From: an uncultured virus (IMG/VR IMGVR_UViG_3300025804_000224)
Taxonomy: Duplodnaviria > Heunggongvirae > Uroviricota > Caudoviricetes
Direction: 5' to 3' (one strand)
Virus record (IMG/VR): IMGVR_UViG_3300025804_000224
DNA length: 64,000 bases
The notes below the pieces were generated by a model that ran no database searches, was not told the DNA's origin, and worked only from the letters and a program-made list of their open reading frames with translations. Shown here piece by piece: positions 1 to 44,892 of this stretch. The position numbers and the translations under genes are program-made. Positions within the stretch are counted from its first letter, which is position 1. Every line of letters starts with the position of its first letter.

Positions 1-42
1 AACACTTTTAGCTACTTTTATACGTACTTAATTGAATAATTT

Positions 43-4281: not shown

Positions 4282-4287
4282 TATAAG

Positions 4288-4320: not shown

Positions 4321-4337
4321 TACTAATACTAATTAAG

Positions 4338-5050: not shown

Positions 5051-5076
5051 GTCATTAACGTATAAATAAGAATAAT

Positions 5077-5781: not shown

Positions 5782-5812
5782 TTATATCTATTTACTAATT
5801 ATAAATATACCT

Positions 5813-6268: not shown

Positions 6269-6269
6269 G

Positions 6270-7037: not shown

Positions 7038-7086
7038 ACTCACTCAGTTCACAGTAAGTATTAATTAGGTAAATAATTCAATAATA

Positions 7087-8367: not shown

Positions 8368-8385
8368 TCTAATATATTTATTAAT

Positions 8386-8976
8386 ATGAATAATTATCAA
8401 TTAAATTCAGTTATTGATTACGTCTATGGACGTCAGACTAACAGTATTGGTTCATTCCTCCATAAGAAGATAGCTAATATCTTTAAGGGTAACTATAAGG
8501 CAGTTAGAGATATGTGTTATCAGACTCAGACGGTTGACCTAGTTACTAATCAGGGTACATATAGAGTCCAGATTGGATTTGGTAGTGGACTCTTTAATGG
8601 TGACTTTAATGCAGCTATGATTCTATGTAATGATGATGTACTTGGGTCAGTTAAGTTCTATCAGGACCTAGCTAAGTTTACTGGTATCTACTTTACTGAT
8701 GCTGACCATCAGGAACCTTTAATTATTGCAGTTAAAGCTAACCCTGAATCTAAGTATTATCTGCATGCATATGATAAGTTAGCTGAGGTATCTGGACATA
8801 TCTATGATAACCTCGAGTTAGGTCTTGCTAAGCAGATATATTCCTCAATGAGCAACTTCAATGACATCATTGAGTTAAGAAATGAGTGGTATTCCTGGAA
8901 TGATACTATAACTAAGGAGACTAAGGATAACATTGAGAAGTTTATCGAGATCTCCAATAATATTACACTTAAGTAG
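8386..8976 (+). CDS. Hypothetical protein
   Basis: 196 aa; QLNS and QTNS motifs near the N-terminus. Confidence 0.6.
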   Translation: MNNYQLNSVIDYVYGRQTNSIGSFLHKKIANIFKGNYKAVRDMCYQTQTVDLVTNQGTYRVQIGFGSGLFNGDFNAAMILCNDDVLGSVKFYQDLAKFTGIYFTDADHQEPLIIAVKANPESKYYLHAYDKLAEVSGHIYDNLELGLAKQIYSSMSNFNDIIELRNEWYSWNDTITKETKDNIEKFIEISNNITLK

Positions 8977-9024
8977 GTCCAAGTTAGCTTAGCCAACATA
9001 CAGACTTAAATAAGTGTATTTTAT

Positions 9025-9562
9025 GGAGCGTATTAAGTTGTAAGTTTCTTTACAACACTGTTGATACGCTCCTAAGAGTTTATAAGCGTAGCTTTAAAGT
9101 GTTGTAATGTTAATTAAATATATTTCTTTACAACACTTATCAATATGTTTGTTATAATCTTAGACGCGTATTTGAGGTGTTGTAAAGAAATCCATAACTC
9201 ACGTTAGTGATAGGTTTACAACACCCTTGATACGCGTCTAAGAATAACAGAGCGTAGCTCCTAAGTGTTTTAAACGTAAGTTTAGATAAAGATAAGGTAT
9301 TGTATTCTAATCTTAAATAAAATTAAAGTTAAACTTAAAATTAAAGATAAGATATTGTATTCTAATCTTAAATAAAATTAAAGTTAAACTTTAAATAAAA
9401 GATAAGATATTATAAGTTTAATCATAATTTAAATAAAAGTTAAACTTTAAATTAAAGATAAGAATATTATAATCTTAAATAAAACTAAAAATTTAATAAA
9501 CTGACCTATTATAAGAGTTTATCACTGGCGTAGCTAACTTAGAACTACATAAGTGTTGTAAA
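9025..9562. repeat. Non-coding element copy 1: nested-palindrome units, AT-rich tandem repeats and conserved tail
   Basis: Inverted repeats GGAGCGTAT/ATACGCTCC (9025/9064) and TTAGACGCGTAT/ATACGCGTCTAA (9160/9230). About four degenerate ~55-bp AT repeats at ~9285-9500. Homologous to 39646-40288. Confidence 0.9.
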
Positions 9563-9582
9563 GTATTAACTTTTAGGAAGTT

Positions 9583-9625
9583 GGTTTAAAACGCTGGGTG
9601 AAAGACCTTTAAGTTGAAAGTTAAG
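9583..9625 (+). promoter_or_regulatory. Conserved intergenic motif, putative phage promoter (copy 1)
   Basis: GGTTTAAAACGCTGGGTGAAAGACCTTTAAGTTGAAAGTT, near-identical to 20290-20334; both lie just upstream of genes. Confidence 0.55.
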
Positions 9626-9634
9626 AATACTGTT

Positions 9635-10348
9635 ATGTACGATATAGATTTTACTCCATATGACCGTCAGGTCAACTCAGCTACTCATGCTACAGCTAAA
9701 GATTATGCTCTAACTGGCATGGCAGTCGCTGCACCTTTACCTTTACCTGGTACTTCTGTAGTAGGTGCATTAGCTGGATTAACTGTAGGTGTACTATTAG
9801 CTGGAGATAGGGAAATATATGTTACTTATCTAGATAAGAGAGGTGCCATTAAAGTCGAGAAATGTAAGGAAATAAGTCGAACTGAAACCTTAGGTGATTT
9901 AAAGAAAAGATATAAAGCTAATCTAAAATCTAAAGGTAATACTAAGATTAAGTTTAGGATAGATACACATAATGCTTTAGATAAAGTAACTGACTGGGCT
10001 AATAAGAAATATTCTCAACTTAAGAAGACTAAGGCATATAAGTCTACAATCAAAGGTATAGCTAAGGTAGACTTAGCAGTTAAGAAAGGAGTAAAGAAAG
10101 TAAAGTCAACTAAGGCATATAAGAAAGCTGAATCTGGAGTAAAATCTGGAGTTAGTAATGTATCTAAAGCAGCTAAGGGAATATTTAATAGAGTTAAGTC
10201 TAAGTTAGCTAAGAAACAGAGTAAGACTAATAGTAGACCTACTTATACTGAATTCATTAATTGTATATGTGATGAAGTATATGGTAGCTCACTTAGGTCA
10301 CTTAACTCTAAGCATAATTTAGATGATATAATTAATAGAATATATTAA
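9635..10348 (+). CDS. Lys-rich paralog-family protein (putative internal virion protein)
   Basis: ATG at 9635 preferred to the track's TTG at 9614, which lies inside the motif. Hydrophobic segment, then family domain (LKSKGNTKIKFRI) and KTNSR. Confidence 0.65.
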   Translation: MYDIDFTPYDRQVNSATHATAKDYALTGMAVAAPLPLPGTSVVGALAGLTVGVLLAGDREIYVTYLDKRGAIKVEKCKEISRTETLGDLKKRYKANLKSKGNTKIKFRIDTHNALDKVTDWANKKYSQLKKTKAYKSTIKGIAKVDLAVKKGVKKVKSTKAYKKAESGVKSGVSNVSKAAKGIFNRVKSKLAKKQSKTNSRPTYTEFINCICDEVYGSSLRSLNSKHNLDDIINRIY

Positions 10349-11491: not shown

Positions 11492-11665
11492 AATGTCAGT
11501 GGGTACGGACGTAAGATAATTAAGTATTTTAGTTCGTCGATAGGTATAGGTTAAATAGTAAGTTGATAAATAGGTTATAAGTTAATGTATAAAATTGGTT
11601 TTGTCATTTGCTGAGTCCGTACCCACTTTAATTTTAATAACATTACTAACTAATAATCAATAACT

Positions 11666-16938: not shown

Positions 16939-18063
16939 ATGGTAATTAGGTCTAGTAATACATTACAGTTGAATTCAACTAAAGGTAAGATAGGAACTGG
17001 ATTAGCTATATCAGGTCTAGTTGGAGGTACTGTTATTACACCTGCATTAGCTCAATCAACTGTAGGTTTACCTGTAGTATTAGCTGCTAGTCTATTATCC
17101 ATAGGATCAATTAGCTTAGGTAAGTACTTAAGGAATCTAGATAAGTTCTCTAAGGATGGTCAAGCTTATATGTTCTATACATCAAGTGGTGCATTTCAAC
17201 GTAAGTTGATTGGAACTGTGAGTAAGACTATGGGAGTTAGTAATATAAAGAAGTTAATAAATTACTCTAAGTTACAGGCTAAGGTAAAAGATAAAGCTAA
17301 GCATATTAAAGTTGAAATAATTACTGATAGAGCTAACTTAGATAAAGTAACTGAGAGAATGAGAGAGAAATTAAGTAAATATCATAACTCAAGAATTCTT
17401 AACTCTATATGTACCAATATATATACTAACGCTAGAGGTGAGAGAACTGCTACTAATAGAATACTTAAAGGTACAGCTAAGAAGTCAGCTAAGGTAGGAA
17501 TTGCTTTAGGTGTAGGTACAGCTGGAGCTACATTTATCAAAGGTACAGGTAAAACTGTATCAAAAGCTATTGGTAAAGGACTAGATGTAGCCTTTAAGCA
17601 AGGTCCAGTTAAAGGTCCTCAGTTCCTATATATGAAAGGTAAGGATATAGTTAAGGTTGGACTAGAGTCTGGAGCTAAGAATAACTGGAAACCTGCACTT
17701 AAGTTAGGAGCTAAAGTAGCTGCACCTTTCTTAGCTATCTCAGCTGCTACTTACGGACTTTATAGATTACATAAAATAGCACGTGATGGAGACCTCTGGG
17801 CTTTCTACCTTAATAAAAGTAAGAAACCTGAGTCATCTAAGTTATGTAGAGTATCTAAGACCATAACTGAGAGTGAGTTAGAAACTATGATAAAACTTAA
17901 ACGTATAGAACTTAAGAATAAGGGATATACTAAGATTAAGTTTAGAATAGTTTACGATAAGACTAGATTAGGTCAACTTAAGGAGAATATGAGTAATCTC
18001 TTTAAGAAGAAATCTAATTCACGTGAAGTATTGAATTCAAGATGTATTGAAATATATGGATAA
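16939..18063 (+). CDS. Paralog-family protein with two tandem family domains
   Basis: DG..Y.FY...IK..I domain twice; ends KSNSREVLNSRCIEIYG. Confidence 0.75.
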   Translation: MVIRSSNTLQLNSTKGKIGTGLAISGLVGGTVITPALAQSTVGLPVVLAASLLSIGSISLGKYLRNLDKFSKDGQAYMFYTSSGAFQRKLIGTVSKTMGVSNIKKLINYSKLQAKVKDKAKHIKVEIITDRANLDKVTERMREKLSKYHNSRILNSICTNIYTNARGERTATNRILKGTAKKSAKVGIALGVGTAGATFIKGTGKTVSKAIGKGLDVAFKQGPVKGPQFLYMKGKDIVKVGLESGAKNNWKPALKLGAKVAAPFLAISAATYGLYRLHKIARDGDLWAFYLNKSKKPESSKLCRVSKTITESELETMIKLKRIELKNKGYTKIKFRIVYDKTRLGQLKENMSNLFKKKSNSREVLNSRCIEIYG

Positions 18064-18838
18064 TAGTATTAGAGAATTAAATTCTTGGACTGACTATCTA
18101 TATACTAGACTTAATAACGCTGAAGTTGACAAACCTAAGACTAGAACTACTGGAGCTGCTATGGTAGATGGAGGAGTCAACTTAGCAACTACAGCTATGA
18201 CTTTAGGTGGAGTAGCTGGTATTAAGGCTAAGTATAATAAAGCTAAGAATTTAGGTAAGTATGCTAAGGCATCAGGAGGTAAGAAAGTAGCTAAACAGTT
18301 CGGACTTCATGCTAAATGGGTAGCTCGAAATAAAGGTAGAGCTATTAAGAAGACTGCAGATACTGTAGGTAATAAGATTACTGGAGCTGGTAATGCCATT
18401 AAGAGTGGAGCTAAGTCAGCTGGTACTTCAGTTACTAAGGGAGCTCAGGCTGTAGGTAGAGCTGCATTTAAGCATCCAGGAGTTGCTATAGGTATAGCTG
18501 CAGCTGCAGTAGCTGCATCGCTATTTGCAGCTTACAAACTAAAGAAAGTTAAGCGTGATGGTGAGCTATATGCATATTACTCTACGTCACCTGGAGGTAC
18601 TGTGACTGAGGAAAGGATAGCTTCTATTCCTAAGTCAATGAATCCAGATGACTTAAAATCTAAAGTCGAGGAAACTAGAGCTAAACTTAAAGCTAAAGGT
18701 GCAATTAAGATTAAGTTTAGGGTAGTATATGATAAGACTAAGTTAGGTCAAATTAAAGAGAATATGAGTAATCTCTTTAAGAAGAAATCTAATTCACGTG
18801 AGGTATTAAACTCAAGATGCCTTGAAATTTATAAATAA
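18047..18838 (+). CDS. Paralog-family protein
   Basis: KRDGELYAYY domain; ends KSNSREVLNSRCLEIYK. Confidence 0.75.
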   Translation: MKYMDNSIRELNSWTDYLYTRLNNAEVDKPKTRTTGAAMVDGGVNLATTAMTLGGVAGIKAKYNKAKNLGKYAKASGGKKVAKQFGLHAKWVARNKGRAIKKTADTVGNKITGAGNAIKSGAKSAGTSVTKGAQAVGRAAFKHPGVAIGIAAAAVAASLFAAYKLKKVKRDGELYAYYSTSPGGTVTEERIASIPKSMNPDDLKSKVEETRAKLKAKGAIKIKFRVVYDKTKLGQIKENMSNLFKKKSNSREVLNSRCLEIYK

Positions 18839-18843
18839 ATAAT

Positions 18844-19329
18844 ATGGAATACGAGAATAATCTTGATGTAATCTATGGAGATAGATACACCAACTCTTTT
18901 TTTAATAAGAAGAAAGAGAATCATAGTAAGTCTTACTATGCAGGTAAGGTAGCTGGTTCACTCACTGGTGCAGCTGCCCATTATGTAAGGAACGTTAAAC
19001 GTGATGGTGAGCTATGGGCATTCTATATTGATAAGAATGGTCAATTCCAGGAGAAGTCAGTTGCTAAGGTAACCAGTAATATGAAGGATAGTGGACTCTT
19101 TGGTAACCAACTTAAGACACTTAAGAAGGTAAATAAGAAGAAACTTAAGGCTGAGGGAGCTAAGAATATTAAGTTCAAGGTCATCTACGATAGATCTAAG
19201 TTACGTAAGGCATCAGATAATATGAAGAAACTATTTGATACAGCGAAGGGTGAGGCTAAGGCTATTAAGTCTACTTGGACTAACTCTAGATGCATTAATG
19301 TATATATCGATTCAATATATAAGGGATAA
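18844..19329 (+). CDS. Paralog-family protein
   Basis: KRDGELWAFY domain; WTNSRCIN near the end. Confidence 0.75.
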   Translation: MEYENNLDVIYGDRYTNSFFNKKKENHSKSYYAGKVAGSLTGAAAHYVRNVKRDGELWAFYIDKNGQFQEKSVAKVTSNMKDSGLFGNQLKTLKKVNKKKLKAEGAKNIKFKVIYDRSKLRKASDNMKKLFDTAKGEAKAIKSTWTNSRCINVYIDSIYKG

Positions 19330-19333
19330 AGGT

Positions 19334-19864
19334 ATGGAATTGAGGCTTGTTAATAACAAAGGTAGGCATGAAACTGCAGTAAAGGTCGGACTTGGAGTTG
19401 CAGCTGCTACTGATTTAGCTGCAGGTGTAGTTGGACTTAATTATGCTAATAAATTAGGTAAAAGTGGAAATGTATTAGTGAAGAATCTCGGTGGTTCACT
19501 TAAAGGTAGAGCTATTAAGAATACTGCTAAAAATCTAGCTGTAGTGATGGGTATATATGCACTTTATAAGTTTGCTCATGTCCCTCGTAGTGGTACTATT
19601 GTAACTGCATATGAGCTTAATGGTATACCTAAGTCTGAGGAGTTGTTTAAGTTCAATAAAGGTGACACTAATAAGGATATTAAAGCTAAGGTAGAGGAAG
19701 CTAAGACTATCCTTAAAGGTAAAGGAGCTAAGCATATTAAATGTAAAGCTGTATTCGATAAGTCTAGAATAGCCCAAGTTAAGGAGAATCTTATGAGTAT
19801 GGTTAAGAAGAGATCTAACTCACGTGAGACATTAAATTCTAGATGCATTGAAATTTATTCATAA
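19334..19864 (+). CDS. Paralog-family protein
   Basis: ATG at 19334 (MELRLVNN leader) preferred to 19235; ends RSNSRETLNSRCIEIYS. Confidence 0.75.
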   Translation: MELRLVNNKGRHETAVKVGLGVAAATDLAAGVVGLNYANKLGKSGNVLVKNLGGSLKGRAIKNTAKNLAVVMGIYALYKFAHVPRSGTIVTAYELNGIPKSEELFKFNKGDTNKDIKAKVEEAKTILKGKGAKHIKCKAVFDKSRIAQVKENLMSMVKKRSNSRETLNSRCIEIYS

Positions 19865-19871
19865 TATATAT

Positions 19872-20272
19872 ATGAAGGTGAGATTTAATAATGGGTATCC
19901 AGGAATGATCGGAGATATCATTAAAGCTGCAGTAGTTTAGCTCCTATGATCATAGTTTCAATACTTGGATTAGTTGACTTAGTAAATTCATATAAGTATA
20001 AGAAGTGGAGAAATCAACCTATTGATAAAGATAGATTAGATAACTATATTTACTTAACCTATCTTACTCCAACTGGTCAGTCAATGACCACTACTCTATG
20101 TAAGTTAACTGATGATATGACTAATGGATTCGTAGAGGATCTATTACGTGGAGCTGTATATAAACTTCAGGTAGAGGAACATATGAGAAATGTTATCTAC
20201 ATAGAGGCTAGGGATGAGAATGAGTTTAAGGAATACTTAACTAAGTATAGGGACTCAAATAAAGTCAGTTAG
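19872..20272 (+). pseudogene. Paralog subfamily-2 gene split by a 1-nt frameshift
   Basis: MKVRFNNG...AAVV* (19872-19940) joins ORF 19946..20272 if TTT at 19936-38 is read as TTTT; QPID..MTNG domain. Confidence 0.6.
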
Positions 20273-20289
20273 TTTTACTTTTAGAGATA

Positions 20290-20334
20290 GGTTTTAAAAC
20301 GCTGGGTGAAAAACCTTTAACTTGAAAGTTTAAG
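20290..20334 (+). promoter_or_regulatory. Conserved intergenic motif, putative phage promoter (copy 2)
   Basis: GGTTTTAAAACGCTGGGTGAAAAACCTTTAACTTGAAAGTT, matching 9583-9625. Confidence 0.55.
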
Positions 20335-20373
20335 TCAAGAGTTTACCTATCTTAATATTAATTACTCAAATTA

Positions 20374-20790
20374 ATGGAAATACATAGAAAGAATAACTCA
20401 ATTAACTGGGGAGCTCTTGGTCTAGCTGCAGTAGTTACTGCAGGTGCAGTTGGATCAATAGCTCTAGGTAATTGGGCAGATAAGCAACCTGTATCTAAGG
20501 TAGGTGATGCATATATCTTCTACCTAGATGGAGTTGATATGCAGTTTAAGTCACTTAAGATAGGTAAGGTACCTCCAGGTATGACTAATGGTCAGTATAG
20601 TGCCTTAGTTAACTCAGGTGCAACTAGAGTTAATAGAACTAAGTTAGTAGGATCTGAAGTGCAAGCATATACTGTATCCAGTGATGCTGAACTTAAGGAT
20701 ATAACTCCAGAGATGTTTAGTAGAGTGCTTAATTCATATGCTAAGTACTATGCATCTACTCACTGGAAAGAGTATGCTAATAAACAATAA
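20374..20790 (+). CDS. Paralog subfamily-2 protein
   Basis: MEIHRKNNS leader, hydrophobic segment, QPVSKVGDAYIFYLD...MTNGQ. Confidence 0.7.
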   Translation: MEIHRKNNSINWGALGLAAVVTAGAVGSIALGNWADKQPVSKVGDAYIFYLDGVDMQFKSLKIGKVPPGMTNGQYSALVNSGATRVNRTKLVGSEVQAYTVSSDAELKDITPEMFSRVLNSYAKYYASTHWKEYANKQ

Positions 20791-20795
20791 ATATT

Positions 20796-21998
20796 ATGAA
20801 ATACTTTGATGAAATTGATTACCTATATGGATGTAACTCCAGGTATACTAACGGACTAAAAGACTTTGCTAAGGGATTTAACCCTAGTGCAGTTAAGAGT
20901 GCAATAAAAGGAGTAGATACTAAGGGATTAGCTAAGGATGCTAAGAACTTAGGATCTCAGGCATGGAGTTCAGTTAAATCTGGAGCTACTGGAGCTCTTG
21001 ATAAAGCTAAGTCAGTTACTTCAGGTGCACGTGGAGCTATGAGTACTGAGGCTAAGATAGCTAAGAATACCTTTAAAGCTAATGGAGGTGGACTTAAAGG
21101 TGCAGCTAAGACAGCTCAGGGTTATGGTAACTTAGCTAAACATTCAGTTCAGATGAAAGGAGCTAAGGCACTTAACTTTGCTAAGGCTAATCCAGGTAAG
21201 GTAGCTCTAGGTGTAGCTGCCGTAGCTGCAGCAAGTGCAGCTCTTATAGGAGCATATAAACTACATAATATCAAACGTGATGGTGAACTATATGCTTACT
21301 ATACTACATCGAATGGAGGTACTGTTATTGAGGAAAGGATAGCCTCTATACCTAAGTCAATGAATCCAGATGACCTAAAATCTAAAGTCGAGGAAACTAG
21401 AGCTAAACTTAAAGCTAAAGGTGCTACTAAGATTAAACTCAGAGTAGTATATGACAAATCGAGATTAGCTCAACTTAAAGAGAATATGAGTAATCTCTTT
21501 AAGAAGAAATCTAATTCACGTGAAGTGATTAATTCTAGATGCCTCGATATTTATGGTGGAGGCATTGTATCTAATTCTCGAATGATTAATAGCTTCCCAT
21601 GGAAGACTATTGGAGTAATTAGTGCAGCTGCAGGTGCCATTGCAGGTGGAATCGGACTCTATAAGCATCATCAGAATCAGCCAGTTAGTAAGTATGGTGA
21701 TGTATATGTATTCTATCTCGATCGTTCTGACATGATGTTTAAGTATCGTAAGATGGATACTATTACTCCTGAGATGACTAATGGTCAGGCTGATAGAATT
21801 ATTAGTAAAGCTGAGGATCAGATTGAGAAGCTGACATATGGTAAGTACAATGAGTTCTATACCTGTGATGTAATCAGCAATCCTACTGATATCAATAAGA
21901 TTGCACTTGCTGAGTATGACTATATCATAAGTCAGGTAATCTCATCTTACTCAAGTAGAGCATATGATAGTGGATATAGTAAAGGTATCAACTATTAA
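20796..21998 (+). CDS. Fusion of paralog subfamily-1 and subfamily-2 units
   Basis: Domain nearly identical to 18047..18838, an NSR linker, then a QPVSKYGD...MTNGQ domain. Confidence 0.75.
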   Translation: MKYFDEIDYLYGCNSRYTNGLKDFAKGFNPSAVKSAIKGVDTKGLAKDAKNLGSQAWSSVKSGATGALDKAKSVTSGARGAMSTEAKIAKNTFKANGGGLKGAAKTAQGYGNLAKHSVQMKGAKALNFAKANPGKVALGVAAVAAASAALIGAYKLHNIKRDGELYAYYTTSNGGTVIEERIASIPKSMNPDDLKSKVEETRAKLKAKGATKIKLRVVYDKSRLAQLKENMSNLFKKKSNSREVINSRCLDIYGGGIVSNSRMINSFPWKTIGVISAAAGAIAGGIGLYKHHQNQPVSKYGDVYVFYLDRSDMMFKYRKMDTITPEMTNGQADRIISKAEDQIEKLTYGKYNEFYTCDVISNPTDINKIALAEYDYIISQVISSYSSRAYDSGYSKGINY

Positions 21999-30020: not shown

Positions 30021-31970
30021 ATGGCTAGGGAAGCTTATGTACAACAGGTCACTAACCTTATTCCAGCTCAGACTATTAATACTACTCCAGTAGGTACTGT
30101 AGTAGCTGGAGTTATTAAGGCTAAGTATGGTGACTTTGAACCTCACTATTTCACAAGTAAGACTGACTTCCTTGCTAAATATACATGTGAGGGTAAATTA
30201 GATAGTGGACTCGATATCTCATTCATGAATGCATATGATATCTTAGGATATCGTAATATGGTTCTAGTGAGAGCTAGAGATGAGGATTATAGTCCATTGA
30301 AACTCAACATTAATGGACGTCCATTTACTGCTGAGTACACTAAGGAATTCGGAGGTAAGTCAGCTTGCTTTGATATTAAGTTCAGGGACTTCATGAAGGA
30401 TAAGAGGTATCAGGTCAAGTACTCACTTGATCGTTATGCTAAATATCCAGGTTCAGTTGAACTTAAGGTCATTTATGAGAAGTTATCTGAGTTCTATGAC
30501 TATGAGATTACTTCAATTGATAAGAGTGCAAGTAACCTCATTAAGAAGGATGCAGTGATAACTGGATATCACCATACAATAGGTGACATCATTGACCTCT
30601 ATGCAGTAGGAACTAATGAAGAAGGTAAGGAGTATGATAATACTGACTGCCATATCGTAGCTCAGGTGTATGACCTAGATGAGAATAATGAGTATAGTAA
30701 GATCAAGTTACTTACCTCTGTAGGTATAGCTGATACTACTAAGTTCAAGGATGCTGATGGTACTCTAATCCTTAATGTCAAGTCTACTAGACGTCCAAAT
30801 GACGTTATTAAGAGCTATGATATCATCTTTGCTCTAGGTAAGAATACTGTAGATAATGAAGGTAATTCACTCTATTATCGTAATATTTGGGATGATAACT
30901 GGCCATTTGAGGTATGTGATGTAGCTGATAATACTGCAGTTGAGAAGACTATACCTAATCCTTATAAAGCTAATGATCCGACTCAGCCAGATTTACTGAC
31001 TTATCTGGATTATGGTCCAGTTCAGTTGATTACCAATGATGTAGAGCATGGAGGTACAGGTCCACTCACCTCTACTATGGATGCAAGTGACGAAGTTGAT
31101 GATGTATTCGATAACGTCACTACAGATAGTAAGGCATGGGATGAACTTGAGCAGTACGACTCACGTCATATATCTCAGTATACTGACTTAGGTACACCTA
31201 ATATTGGTAGTAGACTTAAGGTATTAGCTGAGAAATATCATGCTCAGTACTGTCTATCCCTACCTAGATCAATGGAGTCAGTTAAGATGGCTAAGGTATG
31301 GGGTGACCTTGACTTAGGTAACTATCGTAGATGGGCAGGTACTCCATTTGCATTTACTGATAAGTACGGATTCAGGGTAGCTATAGCTCCATCTACTCAG
31401 TACATTGAGACAGTAGCTACTAATGCATCTAATGGACTAGAGTGGGAAGCTGCAGCTGGAACTGAGACTGGAGTTATTAACTATGGTGACTTCAGTAGAA
31501 CTTACCGTAAAGATGAACGTGAAGCTCTACTTGATCTTAAGATTAATACTCTTACGTTCAAGGAGACTGAGGTATCTAACTCTACAGTTAATGGAGGTGC
31601 TAATATCATCAATGATGACCTTACTGGACTTATTATCAATAATCCATATAAGGAGGAATGTAACTTCCGTATTGGTATAGCTATTAACAATCAGGTAGAC
31701 CTTATTGTAGAGAACTTTAAGTTCAAACGTAATACTGAGAAGTTCAGGAATAAACTTCAGGCAGCTATTAATAGCTACATCAAGGGAGCTAACTTTGTTA
31801 ACTACCTGGCTGACTGGCAGGTTATCTGTAATGACTCAAATAACCCGACTTCACTTCAGGTACAGAATAAAGTTGCAGTTAGGGTTGATGTACAGTATTA
31901 TGATACTGGTAAGTACTTTACCATAGTTAATAATGTATATCCTATCTCTGAATCATTTGCTGAGGAGTAA
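30021..31970 (+). CDS. Tail sheath protein
   Basis: 649 aa; AAGTETG, EREALLDLKINT and VICNDSNNP...VRVDV sheath C-terminal motifs. Confidence 0.9.
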   Translation: MAREAYVQQVTNLIPAQTINTTPVGTVVAGVIKAKYGDFEPHYFTSKTDFLAKYTCEGKLDSGLDISFMNAYDILGYRNMVLVRARDEDYSPLKLNINGRPFTAEYTKEFGGKSACFDIKFRDFMKDKRYQVKYSLDRYAKYPGSVELKVIYEKLSEFYDYEITSIDKSASNLIKKDAVITGYHHTIGDIIDLYAVGTNEEGKEYDNTDCHIVAQVYDLDENNEYSKIKLLTSVGIADTTKFKDADGTLILNVKSTRRPNDVIKSYDIIFALGKNTVDNEGNSLYYRNIWDDNWPFEVCDVADNTAVEKTIPNPYKANDPTQPDLLTYLDYGPVQLITNDVEHGGTGPLTSTMDASDEVDDVFDNVTTDSKAWDELEQYDSRHISQYTDLGTPNIGSRLKVLAEKYHAQYCLSLPRSMESVKMAKVWGDLDLGNYRRWAGTPFAFTDKYGFRVAIAPSTQYIETVATNASNGLEWEAAAGTETGVINYGDFSRTYRKDEREALLDLKINTLTFKETEVSNSTVNGGANIINDDLTGLIINNPYKEECNFRIGIAINNQVDLIVENFKFKRNTEKFRNKLQAAINSYIKGANFVNYLADWQVICNDSNNPTSLQVQNKVAVRVDVQYYDTGKYFTIVNNVYPISESFAEE

Positions 31971-32088
31971 TTCTATAATTTTGTTGTGTTAAATATTTAT
32001 GTTTGGTTAGTTAAAGTTTCATATAGTTTTGAAGTTTTTTTCATACAGATAGATTAAATTAAGCATTAATTTAATATCAGTGGATATT

Positions 32089-32128
32089 ACTTACCTAAAG
32101 TAGGCTGTGCAGTTTACTTTAGGTAAGT
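32089..32128 (+). terminator. Stem-loop between sheath and terminase genes
   Basis: 14-bp inverted repeat ACTTACCTAAAGTA/TACTTTAGGTAAGT. Confidence 0.55.
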
Positions 32129-32168
32129 TAAATTTATTCACCTAACATAATTTAAAGATATTAAGTAG

Positions 32169-33968
32169 ATGGAAGTAAAGGAATTAATGAAGTTAATAGA
32201 TGAAGGTAAGTTATCAGTTCAAGATAACTTATATATTACATCTAAACTCATTGGATACACTGCTATGCCACCTACTATTGAGGAATTTGTCAATGATGAC
32301 TATTATTTAGGTAAGGTATTTGGTAAGTTCCTATTTAAACATTGGAAGAATTTCCTAAAGAAGTTATTTCCTGACCCTATTCATCAACCTTATCCTTATG
32401 TATGCCTTACTGGAGCTCTAGGTGCAGGTAAGTCAACTATAGCTAAGGTAGCTGAGATGTATATAGACTGTAAGATGGACCATCTATATGATTTCTCATT
32501 TGCATCTCTAGCTGATACTAAACCTATTGTAGCTTCATTCTTTCATACGAATAGAGCTAAGGCTCAACAGGAATTTGTTGACTCCATAAAAGGAATGAGG
32601 CAGAGGTCTCCATACTTCACTATGGGTAAGCTAGGTGGAGTACAGGTAGGACTAGGAACTGATGGTCAGAGAGGTAACTCATCAATCGGTGAGGATGTAA
32701 TCTTCTATAATATGTCAGAGTTAAACTTCGTAAAGAGGTCAATAGCTCAGGCTAAGATTACTCAGGCTCACATGAGAAATAAATCTCGATATCAGAAGAT
32801 ATTAGGATACTTCCCAATGATTATTCTTGACTCATCAGCTGATGCAGATAACTCTGTAGTTGATGAATTCATTAATAATAATCCATTTGAAGGTGTAGCT
32901 GTAGATAGGTCAGCTATATGGGAAGCTAAGGAAGGATTAGGTATATACTTTAATAAAGGCTCATTTAAACTATATAAAGGTGACTCACAGAGTAGACCTC
33001 ATATAATTGAGGAAGGTGAGGATGAGTCTAAGCTTGATAAGGATAGAATAGTTATATGTCCTAAGGAAGTAGAGCCTGACTTTAGGTCTAACCTTATTCA
33101 GGCTATGAGAGATATTGGAGGTATGTCAGTAAGTGCCTCAGAAAACTTTATTGAGGATACCTCAGCTATTGATAGACAGTGCAGCTTACATGATTATATA
33201 CCTAATCCTATCTATGTAGAGTTCAGTGATCTTAAGGATGATATAATGTCTAAGGTAGACTATGCTATAGACTTACTACCTAAAGATAAGATTATCTTCA
33301 TTGGACTTGATGCAGGTATCACTAATGACCTTTACTCCATAGCTATGGGTTATGTGGATAGGATGTTTGAGGTACCAACTAAAGTTGAGGATAAATGGAA
33401 TAAGATTTACTATCCTGTAGTACAGATGCCAGTTGTATTTGGTATCTCAAGGTATGCTACTGAGTATACATCAATAACTCACATATATCAATTCATCTTA
33501 GCTGTTAGAGATAGAGGTTATGAAGTAGGAGCTGTAACCTGTGACCAATATCAATCAACTCAACTTATTCAAGATATTAATAGGTCAGGAATAAGATGTT
33601 ATAAGATCTCTACTGATAGGACTGATGTACCTTCAGGTAAGTTTAAGGATGCAATGTATAGGGGATTAATCTTTATGCCTGATTCACCTATACTTAAAGC
33701 TGAGTTGAAGAGACTTAAGAGAGTTGATGGAAAGATTGATGCATCAAGAGAGGAAGTTAATGGCATTACTACCCATAAAGATTTCTCCGATGCAGTAATT
33801 AGATGTTATAATTCTATCTTAGATAATGTAGACTTAGCCACTGAGGTACCATCTAATGCAGCTATGGATACTCAGATTGAGTCAACTAAGAAGTTACTTG
33901 ATAATAGTAATGCTAACTCAGCTCAGAAGACTATATCTAATATGTTAGAGTCAATATATCAATTCTAA
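32169..33968 (+). CDS. terL: Terminase large subunit
   Basis: PPTIEEF, Walker A GALGAGKST, IILDSS coupling motif, nuclease motifs IGLDAG, TCDQYQS and HKDFSDA. Confidence 0.92.
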   Translation: MEVKELMKLIDEGKLSVQDNLYITSKLIGYTAMPPTIEEFVNDDYYLGKVFGKFLFKHWKNFLKKLFPDPIHQPYPYVCLTGALGAGKSTIAKVAEMYIDCKMDHLYDFSFASLADTKPIVASFFHTNRAKAQQEFVDSIKGMRQRSPYFTMGKLGGVQVGLGTDGQRGNSSIGEDVIFYNMSELNFVKRSIAQAKITQAHMRNKSRYQKILGYFPMIILDSSADADNSVVDEFINNNPFEGVAVDRSAIWEAKEGLGIYFNKGSFKLYKGDSQSRPHIIEEGEDESKLDKDRIVICPKEVEPDFRSNLIQAMRDIGGMSVSASENFIEDTSAIDRQCSLHDYIPNPIYVEFSDLKDDIMSKVDYAIDLLPKDKIIFIGLDAGITNDLYSIAMGYVDRMFEVPTKVEDKWNKIYYPVVQMPVVFGISRYATEYTSITHIYQFILAVRDRGYEVGAVTCDQYQSTQLIQDINRSGIRCYKISTDRTDVPSGKFKDAMYRGLIFMPDSPILKAELKRLKRVDGKIDASREEVNGITTHKDFSDAVIRCYNSILDNVDLATEVPSNAAMDTQIESTKKLLDNSNANSAQKTISNMLESIYQF

Positions 33969-38961: not shown

Positions 38962-39579
38962 ATGGATTTAAATCAGGTACAACAGTTAGCTCAGCAAGCC
39001 CTCACTGGAGGTAATGACTTTGCTGACATGAGATGGGATAAGTATCGTGATAATAATAAGGAGGGTAAGAGACCTGACTTATGGACCTTTACTATGATTG
39101 AACCAGCTAAGGCTATATATTATCCAGGTGATGAAATTCTTAATGCTAGACTTGATACTGTATCAGTACAGCGTAACTCATGGCAGTTACATACAGGTGA
39201 TTCAGCTACAGTAAGAGGTTATCATCCCTTAGGTGGTCAGCCTAATGGATTCGTAGATATGTCAGGTTCATTTACTCTTAACTTGACTGATAAGCAAGAC
39301 TATGCTATTGAGCTCTGGATTAAGAATACTCGTGACCTTATCTCTAATCCTGAGACTAGGTTCAGTTATCCAGTAGAGTTACTTATGTGTCAGGCTGAGG
39401 TAGCATTCCACAATACAGTACAGCAAAGAGTGAAGGTATGGAACTTCCTTAATGCAGTTCCACGTCAGGCAGCTGTAGGTCAGGATGCACCTCAGAATGG
39501 TGATGTATCATGGGGAGCTGATAATAACCTTACTTGGAACTTCCCATGGCATACAGAGAATTATGTAAATATCTATTAA
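38962..39579 (+). CDS. Tail tube protein (T4 gp19-like)
   Basis: 205 aa; RPDLW, FTLNLTD, WNFLNAVP and LTWNF pattern. Confidence 0.7.
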   Translation: MDLNQVQQLAQQALTGGNDFADMRWDKYRDNNKEGKRPDLWTFTMIEPAKAIYYPGDEILNARLDTVSVQRNSWQLHTGDSATVRGYHPLGGQPNGFVDMSGSFTLNLTDKQDYAIELWIKNTRDLISNPETRFSYPVELLMCQAEVAFHNTVQQRVKVWNFLNAVPRQAAVGQDAPQNGDVSWGADNNLTWNFPWHTENYVNIY

Positions 39580-39645
39580 TTCTTACAACACTTATCTGGA
39601 TCCAGATTAGCTCTGCCATTAATGAGACTTTAATAGGTGAGTTCC

Positions 39646-39961
39646 TTTACAACACTTACAATATGTTTGTCTATTACTTTAGACGCGTATTAACAGTGTT
39701 GTAAAGGTTTACTATTACGTAAGTTATAGATTTCTTTACAACACCTCAGATACGCGTCTAAGAGTTAAGGAGCGTAGCTCTTAAGTGTTGTAAAGACGTA
39801 AGTCTTAATCTTCTTTAGAACACTTATCAATACGTTTGTTATAACCTTAGGAGCGTATTAACAGTGTTGTAAACCTTTCACTAACGTGAGTTATGAATAT
39901 CTTTACAACACCTCAAATACGCTCCTAAGAATAAGTAAGCGTAGCTCTTAAGTGTTCTAAA
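39646..39961. repeat. Non-coding element copy 2: two ~148-nt nested-palindrome units
   Basis: Units 39646-39794 and 39814-39961, each with outer, middle and inner inverted repeats. Confidence 0.9.
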
Positions 39962-40000
39962 CGTTAGTTTAGATATAGGTAAGAATATTATAGTATAATC

Positions 40001-40288
40001 TAAAATTAAAGTTAAACTTTAAATTAAAGATAAGATATTATATTCTAATCTTAAATAAAATTAAAGTTAAACTTTAAATTAAAGATAAGATATTATATTT
40101 TAATCTAAAATTAAAGTTAAACTTTAAATTAAAGATAAGATATTATATTTTAATCTAAAATTAAAGTTAAACTTTAAATTAAAGATAAGATATTATATTT
40201 TAATCTAAAATTAAAGTTAAACTTTAATAAACTGACCTATTATAAGACCTTAATATTGGCATAGCTAACTTAGAACTATGTAAGTGTC
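40001..40288. repeat. AT-rich 50-bp tandem repeat (~4.4 copies) plus tail conserved with copy 1
   Basis: Unit TAAAATTAAAGTTAAACTTTAAATTAAAGATAAGATATTATATTTTAATC; tail ACTGACCTATTATAAGA...TAGCTAACTTAGAACTA. Confidence 0.9.
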
Positions 40289-40311
40289 TCAACGTACTTA
40301 AACTTAGGTAA

Positions 40312-41097
40312 ATGGCTACATTAAATACAGAAAGTTTACCACTACATTATAAATATGACTTTCCTACCATAGAAGTGAAACCTTATACATATAGGTCACT
40401 TATGGATTATTTGGAAGGTATGCCTAATAATGATAGTGACTTATATCTATATGACCTTAAATGGCTACTTAGGGATGATAGGAATGCAGAGAAGTTAATG
40501 ACTCCAGATGCAGATTATCTTATATTCCTTAAGAAAGCTATATCAATAAAGGATGACTTACGTATAGTTACTGAAGTAAAATGTCCTTTATGTGGTAGAG
40601 TAAATACTATCACTATAACTCAGGATGACCTCCAATTTGTACACCCATCAGATCAAGTTAAATATGATGGAGTATGGATGGAGTTATCTACAGGTACATT
40701 TCTATGTAAGTTACCTACTGTAGCTAAAATGCTTAAGGTACTTGACTTAAGTAAAACTTATGGACTCACTAAACATTTTGAGTTAGTAAAGTCAATGGCT
40801 ATGGTATATGAACAGGAACTAAATCCAATGGGAGTTGAACATGCTATATTAGATGCAGGTCCATCTGACATACCAATTATACTTAAGGTATATGATATAT
40901 TATTTAGTTCACTGTTACCTATTAATAAAATTTGTGAGAATCCAGATTGTGAGTTACATAATTCTAATAACGGAGGGATGTCGATAGAGGTTAATGCTCT
41001 GATCGGCAACTTATTTCGCTCCTTATTACTCAGTAACCCAATTGATGGATCTAAGATTTACGTTAGAGAAACTAGCGAAGATACAAGTAAGGGATAA
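40312..41097 (+). CDS. Tail/baseplate hub assembly chaperone (T4 gp26-like)
   Basis: LP start, DADYLIF, CPLCG and CENPDC motifs; lies between tube and tape measure. Confidence 0.7.
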   Translation: MATLNTESLPLHYKYDFPTIEVKPYTYRSLMDYLEGMPNNDSDLYLYDLKWLLRDDRNAEKLMTPDADYLIFLKKAISIKDDLRIVTEVKCPLCGRVNTITITQDDLQFVHPSDQVKYDGVWMELSTGTFLCKLPTVAKMLKVLDLSKTYGLTKHFELVKSMAMVYEQELNPMGVEHAILDAGPSDIPIILKVYDILFSSLLPINKICENPDCELHNSNNGGMSIEVNALIGNLFRSLLLSNPIDGSKIYVRETSEDTSKG

Positions 41098-41280: not shown

Positions 41281-44200
41281 ATGGGATTATTTGACTTATT
41301 TAGTGGTATCAGTGAGGATACTAAACCTAGGGATGGAGGTGGAAATATACCTAGCATAGGTATGCCTAATATATCATTACCTGACATTAAGTCAGTTATA
41401 AATCCCATAACTCAGAAGATTACTACTATTAAAGATGACTTAACTAGCTTACGTCATGCTAAGAGAAATGAGGAATTAAATAAGGTTAATCCTGAGTTAA
41501 TATCTGCAGCTGCTTATGCATCTAGTAAGAACTCTACTAGACCTGAGTCTAAGGTTAATCCAATAGTAGTTAATAAGAATAATGCTGATAGTATTCCTAC
41601 TATATTAACTAGTTCACCTGAGTCAATAGCTGAATATAAACGTCATAATCAGGCTATTGAGAAAATTGAGGATGCTAGGTTATCTGAGGAAGTCAGTAAT
41701 AATAAACGTGAAGATGACTATCGTAAGGGACTAATTGAGTATAGGAATACCAAGGATGCAGAAGCTAAGGCTAGAGCTAGAGCTGATGAGCAAGCTGAGT
41801 TGATGGAACGTCAACGTGAAAGAGATGCAGCTGCAGCTGAGGCAGCTAAAGGTAAGACTGAGTCAGAATCTAGAGCTAAACAGTTAGATGCATCTCAAGG
41901 TAATGGTGAGGATAAGAAATCTGAGTCACCTTTAGCTAAGATACTTAAGAGATTCCTTAAGATATACTCACTATATAAGTTAATCACATTACCTGAGAGA
42001 ATATTTGGTAAGATATCTGCTTTATTTACAGCTATAAAATGGATAGGTGCATTACCTAAATTATTTAGGAAAGGTGGACTCAAGTACCTATTTAAGGGAA
42101 TTAGAGTAGGTTTTGATAAAGTCCTATGGACTATGTTTAAACCTAGAAGTCCACTTACTAAATTTGTATATAAGCACTTTATTAGACCATTAGATAATTT
42201 AATTGGTAAGGTACTTAATCCATTTAAGTCTATATTTGGACTTGGAGGTAATGTAGCTAAGAATGTATCTAAAGCTGCAGGTACTGTAAGTACTGAGGTA
42301 GCTAAGGTAGGTGAAGGAGTTGATAAAGTAGGTGAGACAGTCACTAAAACTGGTAATAAGTTCTTATCTAAGTTTACTGGATTCTTTAATAACATAGCTA
42401 AGAAATTACTTCCACTTGACTCACTTAATAAAGCATTCTCTAAGTTTAGAGGTACCTATGGTAAGTTTACTGGAACTATAACTAAGAGTATTAATGCAGT
42501 TAAGACTCAGATAGGTAAGTTATTAGGTCCAGTAACTAAGGTATTAGGTAAGGTACTTAATCCAGTTAAAGGTGCAGTAGATGCAGTAAAAGGTGTAGCT
42601 AAGAAAGTAGCTAATACTAAGGTATTTAAAGCTGTATCAGGTGTAGCTAGTAAGGTAGCTAAGAAAGTAGCTAATACTAAGGTATTTAAAGCTGTATCAG
42701 GTGTAGCTAGTAAGGTAGCTAAGAAAGTAGCTGGATCAAGATTAGCTAAGGCTGCTACATGGCTACGTCATCCTAAGATATTAGGTAAGTTAGGTAAGAA
42801 GATGTTATCTAAGATAACTCCCACTCTACCTAAGTTAGCTAGTAAGGTAGGAGTTAAGATGGCAGCTAAGGGAGGTAAGTCAGCCCTTAAACAGGTACCT
42901 CTATTAGGTGCAGCTATAGGTATAGGTGATGCTATCTATGACATTACTAAAGGTGACTATGTAGGTGCAGGTTTATCCCTACTTTCAGGTATAGCTCCTA
43001 CTCTTAATGTAGTAGCTCCAGGTTTAGGTACAGCTATCTCTATGGGTGCTATGGGAGCTGACATAGCTAGGGATGTACTTAAGGAGCCAGTTAAGGAAGC
43101 TGTAGATGTATTCGATAAAGAGACTCCTGAGTCACTAGAGAAAGAGCCTGAAGCTGACCTATCTACTTCAGCTAAGGAAGATAGTAATAAATCTGAGTTA
43201 GATGAGGTAGAGGATGAAGATAATAAGAAAGTAAAGTCAGCTAAGGTTAATGATAAGAATTTACTTAATAGAGTAGCTGACTCGGATAAAGTTAGGGATT
43301 CATTAGCTGACAATACTGTAGGTAAGGCAGCTAGTAAGTTAATCCCTAAGGGAGGTAAATCAAAGTCAGCTGGTGAATTACTTAAAGCTGGAAATAGTGT
43401 AGGCATAAAAGGTAGTCACTCATCTGACTATGTAGAAGGTGAGGGAGTTGATAAAGGTATTGACTCCCTTAAGAATAGATCTGGTAAGGTAGGACTTGTA
43501 GGTAAAGTCCTATCAGTAGGCAATAAACTTAGACCTAGTAATGTAGTAAGTACATTTGTCACTCCAGTAGTTAAGAAGTTCCTATCTCCAGTTAGATCTA
43601 TATTATCAGCTGGATTTGGTGGACTTAGGTCACATTTAAAGTCAGCTGGAAATGTACTCCATAACTTAGTAAAAGGTATTGGATCTAGGATATTTGGAAT
43701 ACATACTACTCTTACTAAGGGACTCAAAGCTAATGCATCCGTAGCTAAAGCTCAAGGTGCATTCAATAAGAAGACTATAGGTAAGTTAGGTGATACTAAT
43801 AAAAAGTTAGATACTATAATTAAGAGACTTACTAAGACTAAAAAGTCATCTCAGGTTAAAGCTGGAGGTGATATAGGATTAGAGTTACTTGGACATAGTA
43901 ATATTAGTGATGTAGCTGAGTCACAGAATACACCTCAACCTCAGGATAAGTCTAAGGATGAGGAACAGGACTATACTGGACCTGGAGTAAAGATAACCAA
44001 TAAGCAAGTCCTAGCTAATCAGGATAAGGCTATGGGTTACTTTACTGAAGTATTAGGACTCTCTAAGAATGCAGCTGCAGCTCTAGTTGGTACTCTAACT
44101 GCTGAGTCTAATATGAATCCAGGTATTGTATCCTATGATGGTGATGGTCAAGGTATTGCTCAGTGGACAGGTTCCCGTAAGGGTCCAGTCCTAGCTTACA

Positions 44201-44892
44201 TTAATAAGGCTAATGGAACTAACTATAGTCAGATAGTTCAGGTACCTCTTGATATGCAGTTAGATGCTGTAGCTCATGAACTGCAGAATAAGAGATATAA
44301 TGTCTTAAATATGCTCAAGAAACCTGACATATCACTTAAGGAGGCAGTTGATGTAGTACTTAGAGGATATGAAAATGGTAGTGATAAGAATGGAGGTATA
44401 CTAGCATCACCAGCTTCACTAGATGCATCATATGCTAAGTGGGGAAATAGCTACAATAATATGATGTTCGGTAAGAATGGACGTATGGCTCAGGCTACTG
44501 GTATTATTAATCGAATTGGAGATAAGGTACCTGGTTATGTTCCTCAGGCTGGTAACACTAGATATGTAGCTAGAGGTTCATATAAGTCCGTAGGTGCTGA
44601 GTCCATGGATAAGATTAATAATCTAGGTGCATCACTATTTGAGAATACCCTACGTGGATCTGGTATCTATAACTATAAAGTTACAGGTACTCCTAAACCT
44701 AAGCCTAGACCTAAACCTAAGGCTAAGGTTACTAAGGCTAAGTTAACTTCATCTAAGGGTACTCCTAAAGTTCCATTTAGAATGAATGATAATTCAGATA
44801 ACTCTATTAATTTAACTCAGGGTGGTAGTACAGTTATTAATAATTATAACTACTACAATACTGATAAAAGGGATAGAACTTTAAATAGGTAA
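41281..44892 (+). CDS. Tape measure-like protein with C-terminal phage tail lysozyme domain
   Basis: 1203 aa; Lys/Ala/Gly amphipathic repeats; GLSKNAAAALVG...AESNMNP...GIAQWTGSR. Confidence 0.8.
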   Translation: MGLFDLFSGISEDTKPRDGGGNIPSIGMPNISLPDIKSVINPITQKITTIKDDLTSLRHAKRNEELNKVNPELISAAAYASSKNSTRPESKVNPIVVNKNNADSIPTILTSSPESIAEYKRHNQAIEKIEDARLSEEVSNNKREDDYRKGLIEYRNTKDAEAKARARADEQAELMERQRERDAAAAEAAKGKTESESRAKQLDASQGNGEDKKSESPLAKILKRFLKIYSLYKLITLPERIFGKISALFTAIKWIGALPKLFRKGGLKYLFKGIRVGFDKVLWTMFKPRSPLTKFVYKHFIRPLDNLIGKVLNPFKSIFGLGGNVAKNVSKAAGTVSTEVAKVGEGVDKVGETVTKTGNKFLSKFTGFFNNIAKKLLPLDSLNKAFSKFRGTYGKFTGTITKSINAVKTQIGKLLGPVTKVLGKVLNPVKGAVDAVKGVAKKVANTKVFKAVSGVASKVAKKVANTKVFKAVSGVASKVAKKVAGSRLAKAATWLRHPKILGKLGKKMLSKITPTLPKLASKVGVKMAAKGGKSALKQVPLLGAAIGIGDAIYDITKGDYVGAGLSLLSGIAPTLNVVAPGLGTAISMGAMGADIARDVLKEPVKEAVDVFDKETPESLEKEPEADLSTSAKEDSNKSELDEVEDEDNKKVKSAKVNDKNLLNRVADSDKVRDSLADNTVGKAASKLIPKGGKSKSAGELLKAGNSVGIKGSHSSDYVEGEGVDKGIDSLKNRSGKVGLVGKVLSVGNKLRPSNVVSTFVTPVVKKFLSPVRSILSAGFGGLRSHLKSAGNVLHNLVKGIGSRIFGIHTTLTKGLKANASVAKAQGAFNKKTIGKLGDTNKKLDTIIKRLTKTKKSSQVKAGGDIGLELLGHSNISDVAESQNTPQPQDKSKDEEQDYTGPGVKITNKQVLANQDKAMGYFTEVLGLSKNAAAALVGTLTAESNMNPGIVSYDGDGQGIAQWTGSRKGPVLAYINKANGTNYSQIVQVPLDMQLDAVAHELQNKRYNVLNMLKKPDISLKEAVDVVLRGYENGSDKNGGILASPASLDASYAKWGNSYNNMMFGKNGRMAQATGIINRIGDKVPGYVPQAGNTRYVARGSYKSVGAESMDKINNLGASLFENTLRGSGIYNYKVTGTPKPKPRPKPKAKVTKAKLTSSKGTPKVPFRMNDNSDNSINLTQGGSTVINNYNYYNTDKRDRTLNR
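42601..42732 (+). repeat. Exact 60-bp in-frame tandem duplication in the tape measure gene
   Basis: 42601-42660 equals 42661-42720 (KKVANTKVFKAVSGVASKVA), plus a partial third copy. Confidence 0.95.

Follow-up and report, generated by a model that had tools for sequence, protein, structure and literature searches.

A nested fold-back repeat, possibly MITE-like, at gene junctions in the virion-gene region of an uncultured cattle-gut phage

Introduction

Among described repeats, the BrickBuilt MITE of Porphyromonas gingivalis and the M1 and M2 repeats of pithoviruses appear most like the element reported here, and the repeat regions of Campylobacter phages and the PeSL cassettes of T4-type phages offer phage parallels. 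BrickBuilt, as its report describes it, is intergenic and multi-copy, has inverted-repeat ends around a tandem minisatellite of variable copy number, and is partly read through from upstream genes (PMC4596501); the phage element shares these features, and its host phylum is probably the same. The two differ in that BrickBuilt has terminal inverted repeats of ~12 bp that match IS5-family elements and is present 19 times in a bacterial chromosome (PMC4596501), whereas the present element, for which no parent IS is known, has ~63-nt imperfect ends and nested 150-nt rods and resides in a phage. The M1 and M2 repeats are, like the element, viral, intergenic and composed of tandem palindromes (~140 nt) with long arms and a short core; their presence varies between relatives, and no transposase was found for them in the published account (PMC10664404). 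They differ in belonging to a eukaryotic giant virus, in occupying 16-18% of its genome and in having a proposed TA target duplication, and the account, which we compared by description only, mentions no enclosing terminal repeat or minisatellite (PMC10664404).

The Campylobacter group II phages CP21, CP220 and CPt10, lytic myoviruses, resemble the element's phage in carrying several related repeat regions, built of ~72-86-bp units with a short common core, in direct and inverted orientation and in variable number (PMC4546147). Those regions reach up to 18 units per arm, in some cases enclose ORFs, bound modules and have another core (PMC4546147), whereas the element comprises four palindromic halves and an AT-rich tract within terminal repeats. 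PeSLs are likewise repeated intergenic stem-loop cassettes of T4-like contractile-tail phages, but they are small units of an early promoter and a terminator in hyperplastic regions (PMC2839356); the element is much larger, lies in a late structural region and has no promoter-terminator pair, with no predicted terminator in one copy (B), one on the minus strand in the other (A), and promoter counts near shuffle level. The ROOL and GOLLD RNAs match it in size (600-800 nt), phage origin, rumen habitat (ROOL) and the lack of a known function, but are described as having many distinct covarying stems and pseudoknots (PMC12286853), whereas the element is built of repeats and its inner parts invert; in contrast to ROOL and GOLLD, the sequence analysed here also holds no tRNAs. 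Baculovirus homologous regions (hrs) share the arrangement in dispersed loci of short runs of conserved imperfect-palindrome units, and differ in belonging to insect viruses, in which origin and enhancer activity has been shown (PMC4535591).

Non-coding passengers are usually purged from the genomes of lytic phages; a stable repeat of 600-710 bases in a virion-gene region is unusual and may be either selfish or useful. The locus is also a cautionary case for the reading of RNA structure in DNA, as long palindromes repair and flip their own arms, and compensatory changes among paralogous copies therefore do not prove a functional RNA.

Results

Genomic setting

The window, by which we mean the whole 64,000-nucleotide stretch analysed (IMG/VR IMGVR_UViG_3300025804_000224), covers the virion-gene region of an uncultured contractile-tailed cattle-gut phage whose main genes all lie on the plus strand. 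Profile matches in a Pfam/PHROG scan identify the genes for the sheath (30021-31970), the large terminase (32169-33968) and the tape-measure protein (41281-44892). The tail tube gene (38962-39579), which forms the 5' flank of copy B of the element, was assigned by its feature and structure neighbours in the ESM Atlas, which are tail tube proteins. A T4 gp26-like baseplate hub gene forms the 3' flank (40312-41097; phrog_150, E 2.9e-4; PF12322, E 1.3e-4, under the curated cut-off). Three segments within this setting were noted separately. An ORF of 1412 aa (43-4281) is unmatched in Pfam, PHROGs and isolate phages and lacks a convincing match in the PDB; paralogous ORFs at 9614-10348 and 16939-21998 share repeated segments (repeat families D2, D3, D6 and D12) and have no Pfam or PHROG match; and the tape-measure gene contains a perfect in-frame 60-nt tandem repeat (42595-42732, 2.3 copies), of which a contig from a second strain (run X3, below) skips 60 nt.

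The best isolate matches of the terminase (28-30% identity) are Ab1-TPeters, RP13, a Vibrio phage, phiLo, IME392, YerA41 and RHph_TM30, so that by sequence the phage terminase appears nearest to the T-hypermodified RP13/YerA41 group. Five of these matches are members of a proposed RP13-like group with modified thymidine (PMC12686479), and the first sequencing of YerA41 was possible from RNA alone (PMC9023294, PMC7354516). All five public runs that match the stretch are RNA-labelled (four on record, one guessed), and four come from bovine gut; the DNA of the present phage may thus be modified too, and the window may have been assembled from transcripts. The endolysin shares 50-53% identity with its counterparts in crAss-like and DAC Bacteroides phages, a hint that the host phylum is probably Bacteroidota. 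Protein-anchored scans of IMG/VR returned no relatives of the phage.

Anatomy of the rods

A sequence-only reading of the window had described four hairpin units of ~148 nt, each with an outer, a middle and an inner inverted repeat. Three full units of ~150 nt and one truncated unit are present, all on the plus strand, and we refer to them as rods B1 (39646-39795), B2 (39814-39962), A2 (9127-9275) and A1 (9025-9108, the truncated one). The three nested inverted repeats are found in each full rod, with the middle pairs as described (39679-39690/39750-39761 in B1, 39847-39858/39917-39928 in B2 and 9160-9171/9230-9241 in A2), as is a plus-strand G-U helix between the intervening arms. The outer pair of B2 bears the reported C>G change on one arm and G>C on the other; the outer 3' arm of A2 carries an uncompensated change, leaving a C-U mismatch. 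In A1 a middle pair survives, but spans only 9 bp, while the left outer arm is absent and the inner pair degenerate; a covariance model (R1) built from three sequences scores this unit at 31 bits, against 158-178 bits for its training units.

Each rod consists of two 60-bp palindromic halves, each bounded by an inverted 10-bp box (B1, 39646-39705 and 39735-39794, paired together; B2, which bears the both-side changes, 39814-39873 and 39902-39961; A1, an intact right half at 9049-9108 and a reduced left half). All seven intact halves are exactly 60 bp long, a length kept in B1 by one pair of offsetting indels. Thirteen exact occurrences of the 9-mer core TTACAACAC were counted in the window, every one within the two elements described below. 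Between B1 and B2 lies a small 5-bp hairpin with a GNRA-type loop (39793-39806), with counterparts after B2 and A2. The rod-like fold itself, as the sequence-only reading had it, is certain: segment 39640-39970 folds with z-scores of -10.83 (plus strand) and -10.69 (minus strand), equalled by none of 100 shuffles on either strand, and in B1 the rod pairing (-58.7 kcal/mol) is preferred over separately folded halves (-42.7 kcal/mol).

The rods are parts of a larger palindromic element

The earlier reading had missed a larger element around the rods, with complementary ends and an AT-rich minisatellite; the rods are the inner part of a palindromic element of 600-710 bases inserted at several gene junctions. 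Copy B (39582-40293, 712 bp, fold z -16.65) fills the gap between the tail tube and hub genes and folds into a closing stem, two rods and an AT-rich rod. Copy A (8960-9562, 603 bp, fold z -15.64; 20 shuffles for each whole-element score) overlaps with its left end the final codons of an ORF at 8386-8976. The copies are 80% identical across aligned columns, lie at unrelated gene junctions 30.6 kb apart, and are both co-oriented with the late genes; neither contains an ORF of at least 60 aa.

The terminal inverted repeats are ~63 nt long and imperfect in both copies, with most pair probabilities above 0.9, and open with the same 10-bp box that bounds each internal 60-bp palindrome. In copy B the left repeat (39582-39644), which starts with the box, has 45 Watson-Crick oppositions with the right one (40229-40292), whose terminal box is decayed; in copy A it is the left box that is decayed (8960-9022) and the right one that is intact (9498-9562), with 46 such oppositions. 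The ends form duplexes of -45.7 kcal/mol in B and -40.6 kcal/mol in A, against -16.8 +/- 3.5 and -16.5 +/- 3.4 in 500 shuffles each, none of which reached the observed values. Since the left end of B pairs with the right end of A at -51.5 kcal/mol (stronger than the ends of either copy among themselves) and one terminal box is damaged in each copy, the present ends look like decay products of once better-paired terminal repeats. A TTAA lies 2-5 nt beyond the box on both sides of B (39576-39579 and 40298-40301) and to the right of A (9566-9569), is absent to the left of A, and occurs once at the corresponding empty site of a relative (L005, below); being palindromic, it is indistinguishable from a longer terminal repeat, and there is no clear target-site duplication.

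Between the rods and the right end lies the minisatellite, with 4.8 copies of a 50-nt unit in B (39980-40227; first unit 55 nt, 11.5% G+C, every unit quasi-palindromic) and 3.7 copies of a 55-nt unit in A (9287-9489). The two minisatellites are identical at 179 of 207 positions, and their G+C content is 11-13%.

Iterons next to an AT-rich tract are a known design of replication origins. The element could on this model be a multi-copy, hr-like replication origin or enhancer, in which four phased palindromic units bind an initiator and the AT-rich region that follows is unwound, with transcripts running leftward out of sigma-70-like sites within the AT repeats possibly serving as primers. The invariant 10-bp box, its inverted pairs, the fixed 60-bp span (7/7) and the adjoining tract of 11-13% G+C fit such a design, and minus-strand TTAACT-17-TA(T/G)AAT sites are found repeatedly in both unit lengths, 50 and 55 nt (four in B, two in A), but promoter-like counts do not exceed those in shuffles (8 vs 5.9 +/- 2.6; 8 vs 4.6 +/- 2.4). 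Baculovirus hrs, described as 3-8 repeats of imperfect palindromes with origin and enhancer roles (PMC4535591), offer a precedent. The flipping of inner segments described below would be neutral for a double-stranded site, although GC skew is positive throughout both copies, with no switch, no initiator gene was identified, the tube-hub site is empty in two relatives, and an origin would not explain the terminal inverted repeat that encloses the whole. We therefore consider an origin unlikely.

Occurrence in relatives and in sequencing runs

Metagenomes were scanned with the tube protein, and the tail tube gene has 13 relatives at 58-72% identity; ENA contigs of 113-193 kb carry tube relatives. 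In the two with DNA across the site (L005 and L006, whose tube proteins are 71% and 66% identical), the tube-hub spacer is only 23-25 nt and the element is absent, a comparison that covers 2/2 such relatives at only 66-71% protein identity. Because only this short spacer is found there, the element at the tube-hub junction appears to be a lineage-specific insertion, and the conservation in relatives that a maintained structure would call for was not seen. A covariance-model search with R1 gave nothing real in either relative (no match below E 1.9), and the same model, searched without a positive control, had no match in YerA41, Ab1-TPeters, RP13, phiLo and DAC16 (0/5); YerA41 and Ab1-TPeters have no long gap among their annotated tail genes. 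The last 14 residues of ORF 8386-8976 are unchanged in an 84%-identical relative, which would fit the presence of copy A there as well.

Broader searches brought up no homologue of the element. IMG/VR DNA patterns gave nothing real: matches L001-L004, L007 and L008 have no further element motif nearby and L014-L016 lie within coding sequence, and we regard all as chance. A protein-anchored scan of GTDB and a DNA pattern on GTDB were empty, as was blastn on plasmids, and blastn on isolate phages gave three short AT-rich matches and nothing real. Rfam gave no match at gathering score in the 64 kb, E-value scans returning hits far under gathering, mostly to miRNA models; an assignment to ROOL, GOLLD, OLE or another Rfam RNA was dropped for want of a covariance-model match. 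Likeness to the 11-nt tetraloop receptor is confined to rod A1 and altered in X3, and the contiguous motif it requires was not seen; protelomerase sites, integron attC sites, retron ncRNAs, toxIN-type antitoxin repeats and hammerhead ribozymes were likewise considered and set aside as their contiguous motifs or partner genes were not seen. The openly accessible literature searched contains no description of the element.

The sequencing runs were read as contigs only, and run X1 may be the source sample. Contigs of X1 that carry element sequence run into flanks unlike those of A or B, and the window has no further exact box, which points to at least one more copy in the X1 sample, in the phage genome or in a co-occurring relative. 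Run X3, from a separate study, represents a close strain: one contig (39246-39761; 9 differences, 1 gap) extends out of the tube gene into copy B, and there are pieces matching copy A. Contigs of X4 and X5 reach parts of the tube gene, and no listed piece falls on the rods; in contigs, such missing cover is no evidence. The stretch thus does occur in RNA-labelled libraries, as the sequence-only reading would need, although a discrete RNA is not thereby established. Contig depth in X1 is higher over the rods (141) than upstream (85) or downstream (48), a measure that cannot show RNA level, strand or ends. Along positions 1-57758, X1 depth declines from 159 (1-9184) to 85 (to 39742), 48 and 43 (beyond 40198), with breaks at repeats; this could reflect operon polarity, as far as contig depth alone tells.

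The RNA-labelled libraries, the contigs that break inside the element and one opposite-strand joint within it in X3 also bring to mind fold-back chimeras from assembly or reverse transcription in an RNA library. We find such an artefact scarcely credible, since the arms are imperfect with offsetting changes, their perfect stretches (12-14 bp) fall short of the 31-letter words, one X1 contig of 9184 nt (taken from its coordinates and differences to be window 1-9184) enters the flipped A2 arm at depth 159, and an independent study (X3) has pieces of both copies.

Copies 80% alike at junctions 30.6 kb apart, with mosaic flip states that show recombination among arms, could alternatively be linkers, or mobile regulatory cassettes, that split the genome into exchangeable modules, in the way of the Campylobacter group II repeat regions or the PeSL cassettes of T4-type phages; in CP21 and CP220, regions made of 72-86-bp units that share a core are reported to flank the modules (PMC4546147). 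Copy B, however, splits a tube-hub pair that is adjacent in relatives and bounds no module, the elements have no strong plus-strand promoter or terminator, and no rearranged strain was seen across the 7 kb compared, so that this explanation is highly improbable.

Inversion of inner arms and the question of selection for an RNA fold

The inner 58 nt of rod A2 (9172-9229) are inverted relative to B1 and B2: they match the reverse complement of the B2 inner segment (39859-39916) at 52 of 58 positions, as opposed to 39/63 in direct orientation, and that of B1 at 48/60 as opposed to 40/62, while the outer arms keep their orientation. The flip places a GNRA loop on the opposite strand, and the two adjacent both-side changes sit in the perfect arms that bound it. 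Given this inversion between A2 and B2, template switching or recombination between the inverted repeats appears to act on the arms. Template switching is reported to create multibase compensatory changes (PMC8794818), and spacer inversion with homogenised arms is among its described outcomes (PMC8604942).

The co-variation of both arms on which the sequence-only reading had rested is present, but concerns 3 of 52 pairs, two of them adjacent, and thus about two events; it was matched in 40 of 500 shuffles of the three paralogous rods. Conversion within the palindrome, which that reading had named as the explanation that would overturn it, would account for much of the pattern, the inner 58 nt being flipped between rods. 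Variable columns are fewer among paired (13/104) than unpaired (31/46) positions, and also in the outer arms taken alone (11/74 vs 7/17, Fisher p=0.037). Counted without regard to strand, G·T oppositions number 16 and A·C oppositions 13, against a background of 56.5% (p=0.63), with ratios of 10:6 in the rods and 6:7 in the closing stems. Two apparent plus-strand preferences were discarded: the G-U count on the plus consensus (11 G-U, 0 A-C) is biased by construction, and the folding-energy gap of -2.2 to -4.5 kcal/mol per rod lies inside the background of -4.65 +/- 6.68. A Bacteroidota -7 promoter box falls on the G-U arm in 3/3 rods but is not enriched in the window (63 vs 54 +/- 8), and no -33 box was seen at the usual spacing; three boxes of this type also lie 5' of the terminase gene (31976, 31998 and 32024, within 31971-32168).

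A large functional RNA of 600-710 nt, multi-branched and either stand-alone with repeated identical helices or cis-acting, would account for the very stable fold with its well-defined closing stem; in the cis version, cleavage of the mRNA at that stem would determine how much tube protein is made relative to the hub and tape-measure proteins. The plus-strand-only G-U helix recurs in all three full rods, where five one-side changes leave the pairing intact, and two of the three X3 substitutions listed in 39580-39761 turn G-U into Watson-Crick pairs, but the third breaks an apical pair. C-GNRA-G hairpins (stem of at least 4 bp) are over-represented in the elements (three on the plus and one on the minus strand, against two and one in the remaining 62.7 kb), yet the inner segments, GNRA loop included, are inverted between copies. 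The RNA labels of all five runs (one guessed) and the higher X1 depth over the rods than on their flanks would also agree with such an RNA, although contig depth is blind to its level, strand and ends and X1 may be the source sample itself. Neutral G·T:A·C counts and a covariation that shuffles show is not significant speak against it, as do the absence of an Rfam family and of the element in relatives; conserved helix sequence with variable loops would, moreover, be the opposite of what ornate RNAs display. We judge an RNA of this kind improbable. As only three pairs co-vary, the G·T:A·C ratio is neutral, and template switching, of which the inner flip is the signature, itself makes compensatory changes, there is little to argue for selection on an RNA fold, and that part of the sequence-only reading did not hold up as well as the rod itself.

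Discussion

A possible MITE-like nature

We favour, with a confidence that goes about halfway, the reading that the element is a non-coding, MITE-like nested fold-back repeat of the phage lineage that is carried in late transcripts. Its anatomy, its several copies, the empty sites and the inversion are observed, whereas an enzyme, the mode of copying and neutrality are inferred. In this scheme a putative transposase or recombinase, supplied in trans, would recognise the terminal and internal boxes and copy the element beside stop codons. The inverted arms would be kept complementary by template switching or recombination between them, a process that would also flip the loops and yield the "compensatory" changes, and slippage would expand the minisatellite. 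The element would be tolerated because it is intergenic and, within the late read-through message, may fold on itself and leave the flanking genes free; consequences for mRNA processing or for the stoichiometry of tube and hub, if there are any, would be secondary. In Correia MITEs, RNase III is reported to cleave at the terminal repeats (PMC10969869), and similar cleavage could, by analogy, be a side effect of the present element.

The MITE-like reading is supported by the empty site in both relatives with DNA there, by terminal inverted repeats in both copies that look decayed from one better-paired ancestor, by the inversion of the inner 58 nt between copies, by the absence of strand bias under neutral tests, by the varying repeat number (3.7 vs 4.8) together with one truncated rod, and by the signs of a further copy in X1. 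The element is also very AT-rich and intergenic, as MITEs are described to be (PMC10969869, PMC11602168), codes for no transposase and falls within a size range of 50-1000 bp, and its architecture resembles that of BrickBuilt (PMC4596501) and pithovirus M1/M2 (PMC10664404). Terminal repeats, non-coding content, several copies and an empty site are thus all present; we call the element MITE-like and not a MITE because a target duplication and a parent element are not established.

Several observations count against the MITE-like reading. No transposase, integrase or HUH family was found among the 63 of 93 window ORFs (at least 60 aa) that were scanned, there is no clear target-site duplication, and no autonomous element with the same ends was detected by strict patterns in IMG/VR and GTDB or among those 63 ORFs. 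Nor did one strict pattern in GTDB genomes, or the plasmid search, point to a host source. There are only two copies in 64 kb, and the insertions are evidently stable, since the second strain (X3) shows pieces of both. Transposable elements are described as uncommon in phages, and viral MITEs as known but rare, at 0.2% of the viruses analysed in one survey (PMC11602168). Finally, asymmetric blocks that arm-to-arm repair could not maintain are invariant across copies, and these blocks together with halves of exactly 60 bp hint at a positive function.

We accordingly keep, as a tentative and rather doubtful alternative, that the element has a function and is under selection, whether as a dispersed hr-like origin whose palindromes a phage initiator recognises or as a branched RNA of ~700 nt that serves as a scaffold or decoy. 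In the branched-RNA form, it might, on an equally tentative estimate for the two together, display up to five identical 10-bp helices. Were either form true, it would be a phage element of a kind not described before, and an origin or scaffold RNA would give a handle on replication in a little-studied group of phages with hypermodified DNA.

Other repeats and structured segments

Three further features of the window were noted. A motif of ~55 nt occurs twice (9570-9625, directly after element A, and 20278-20333), each time just 5' of a gene, and shares an exact 16-mer (at 9588 and 20296; 0.12 expected by chance). Two loops of GAAA type lie within it, its fold is no better than that of shuffles, Rfam gave no match, and the IMG/VR matches to it (L015 and L016) are chance; a phage promoter or leader is possible. 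An intergenic segment 5' of the endolysin gene (11492-11665) contains a perfect 13-bp inverted repeat around ~100 nt (-41.5 kcal/mol) and is possibly a second structured element. Four gene starts (34409, 35262, 62793 and 63798) share a ~80-nt repeat with a G run, which in three of them is G6, with a stop after 15-21 codons and an open frame past the run (177, 142 and 128 codons), and in the fourth is G7, which reads through (67 aa); to judge from these frames, the tail-associated genes concerned appear to undergo homopolymer phase variation or frameshifting.
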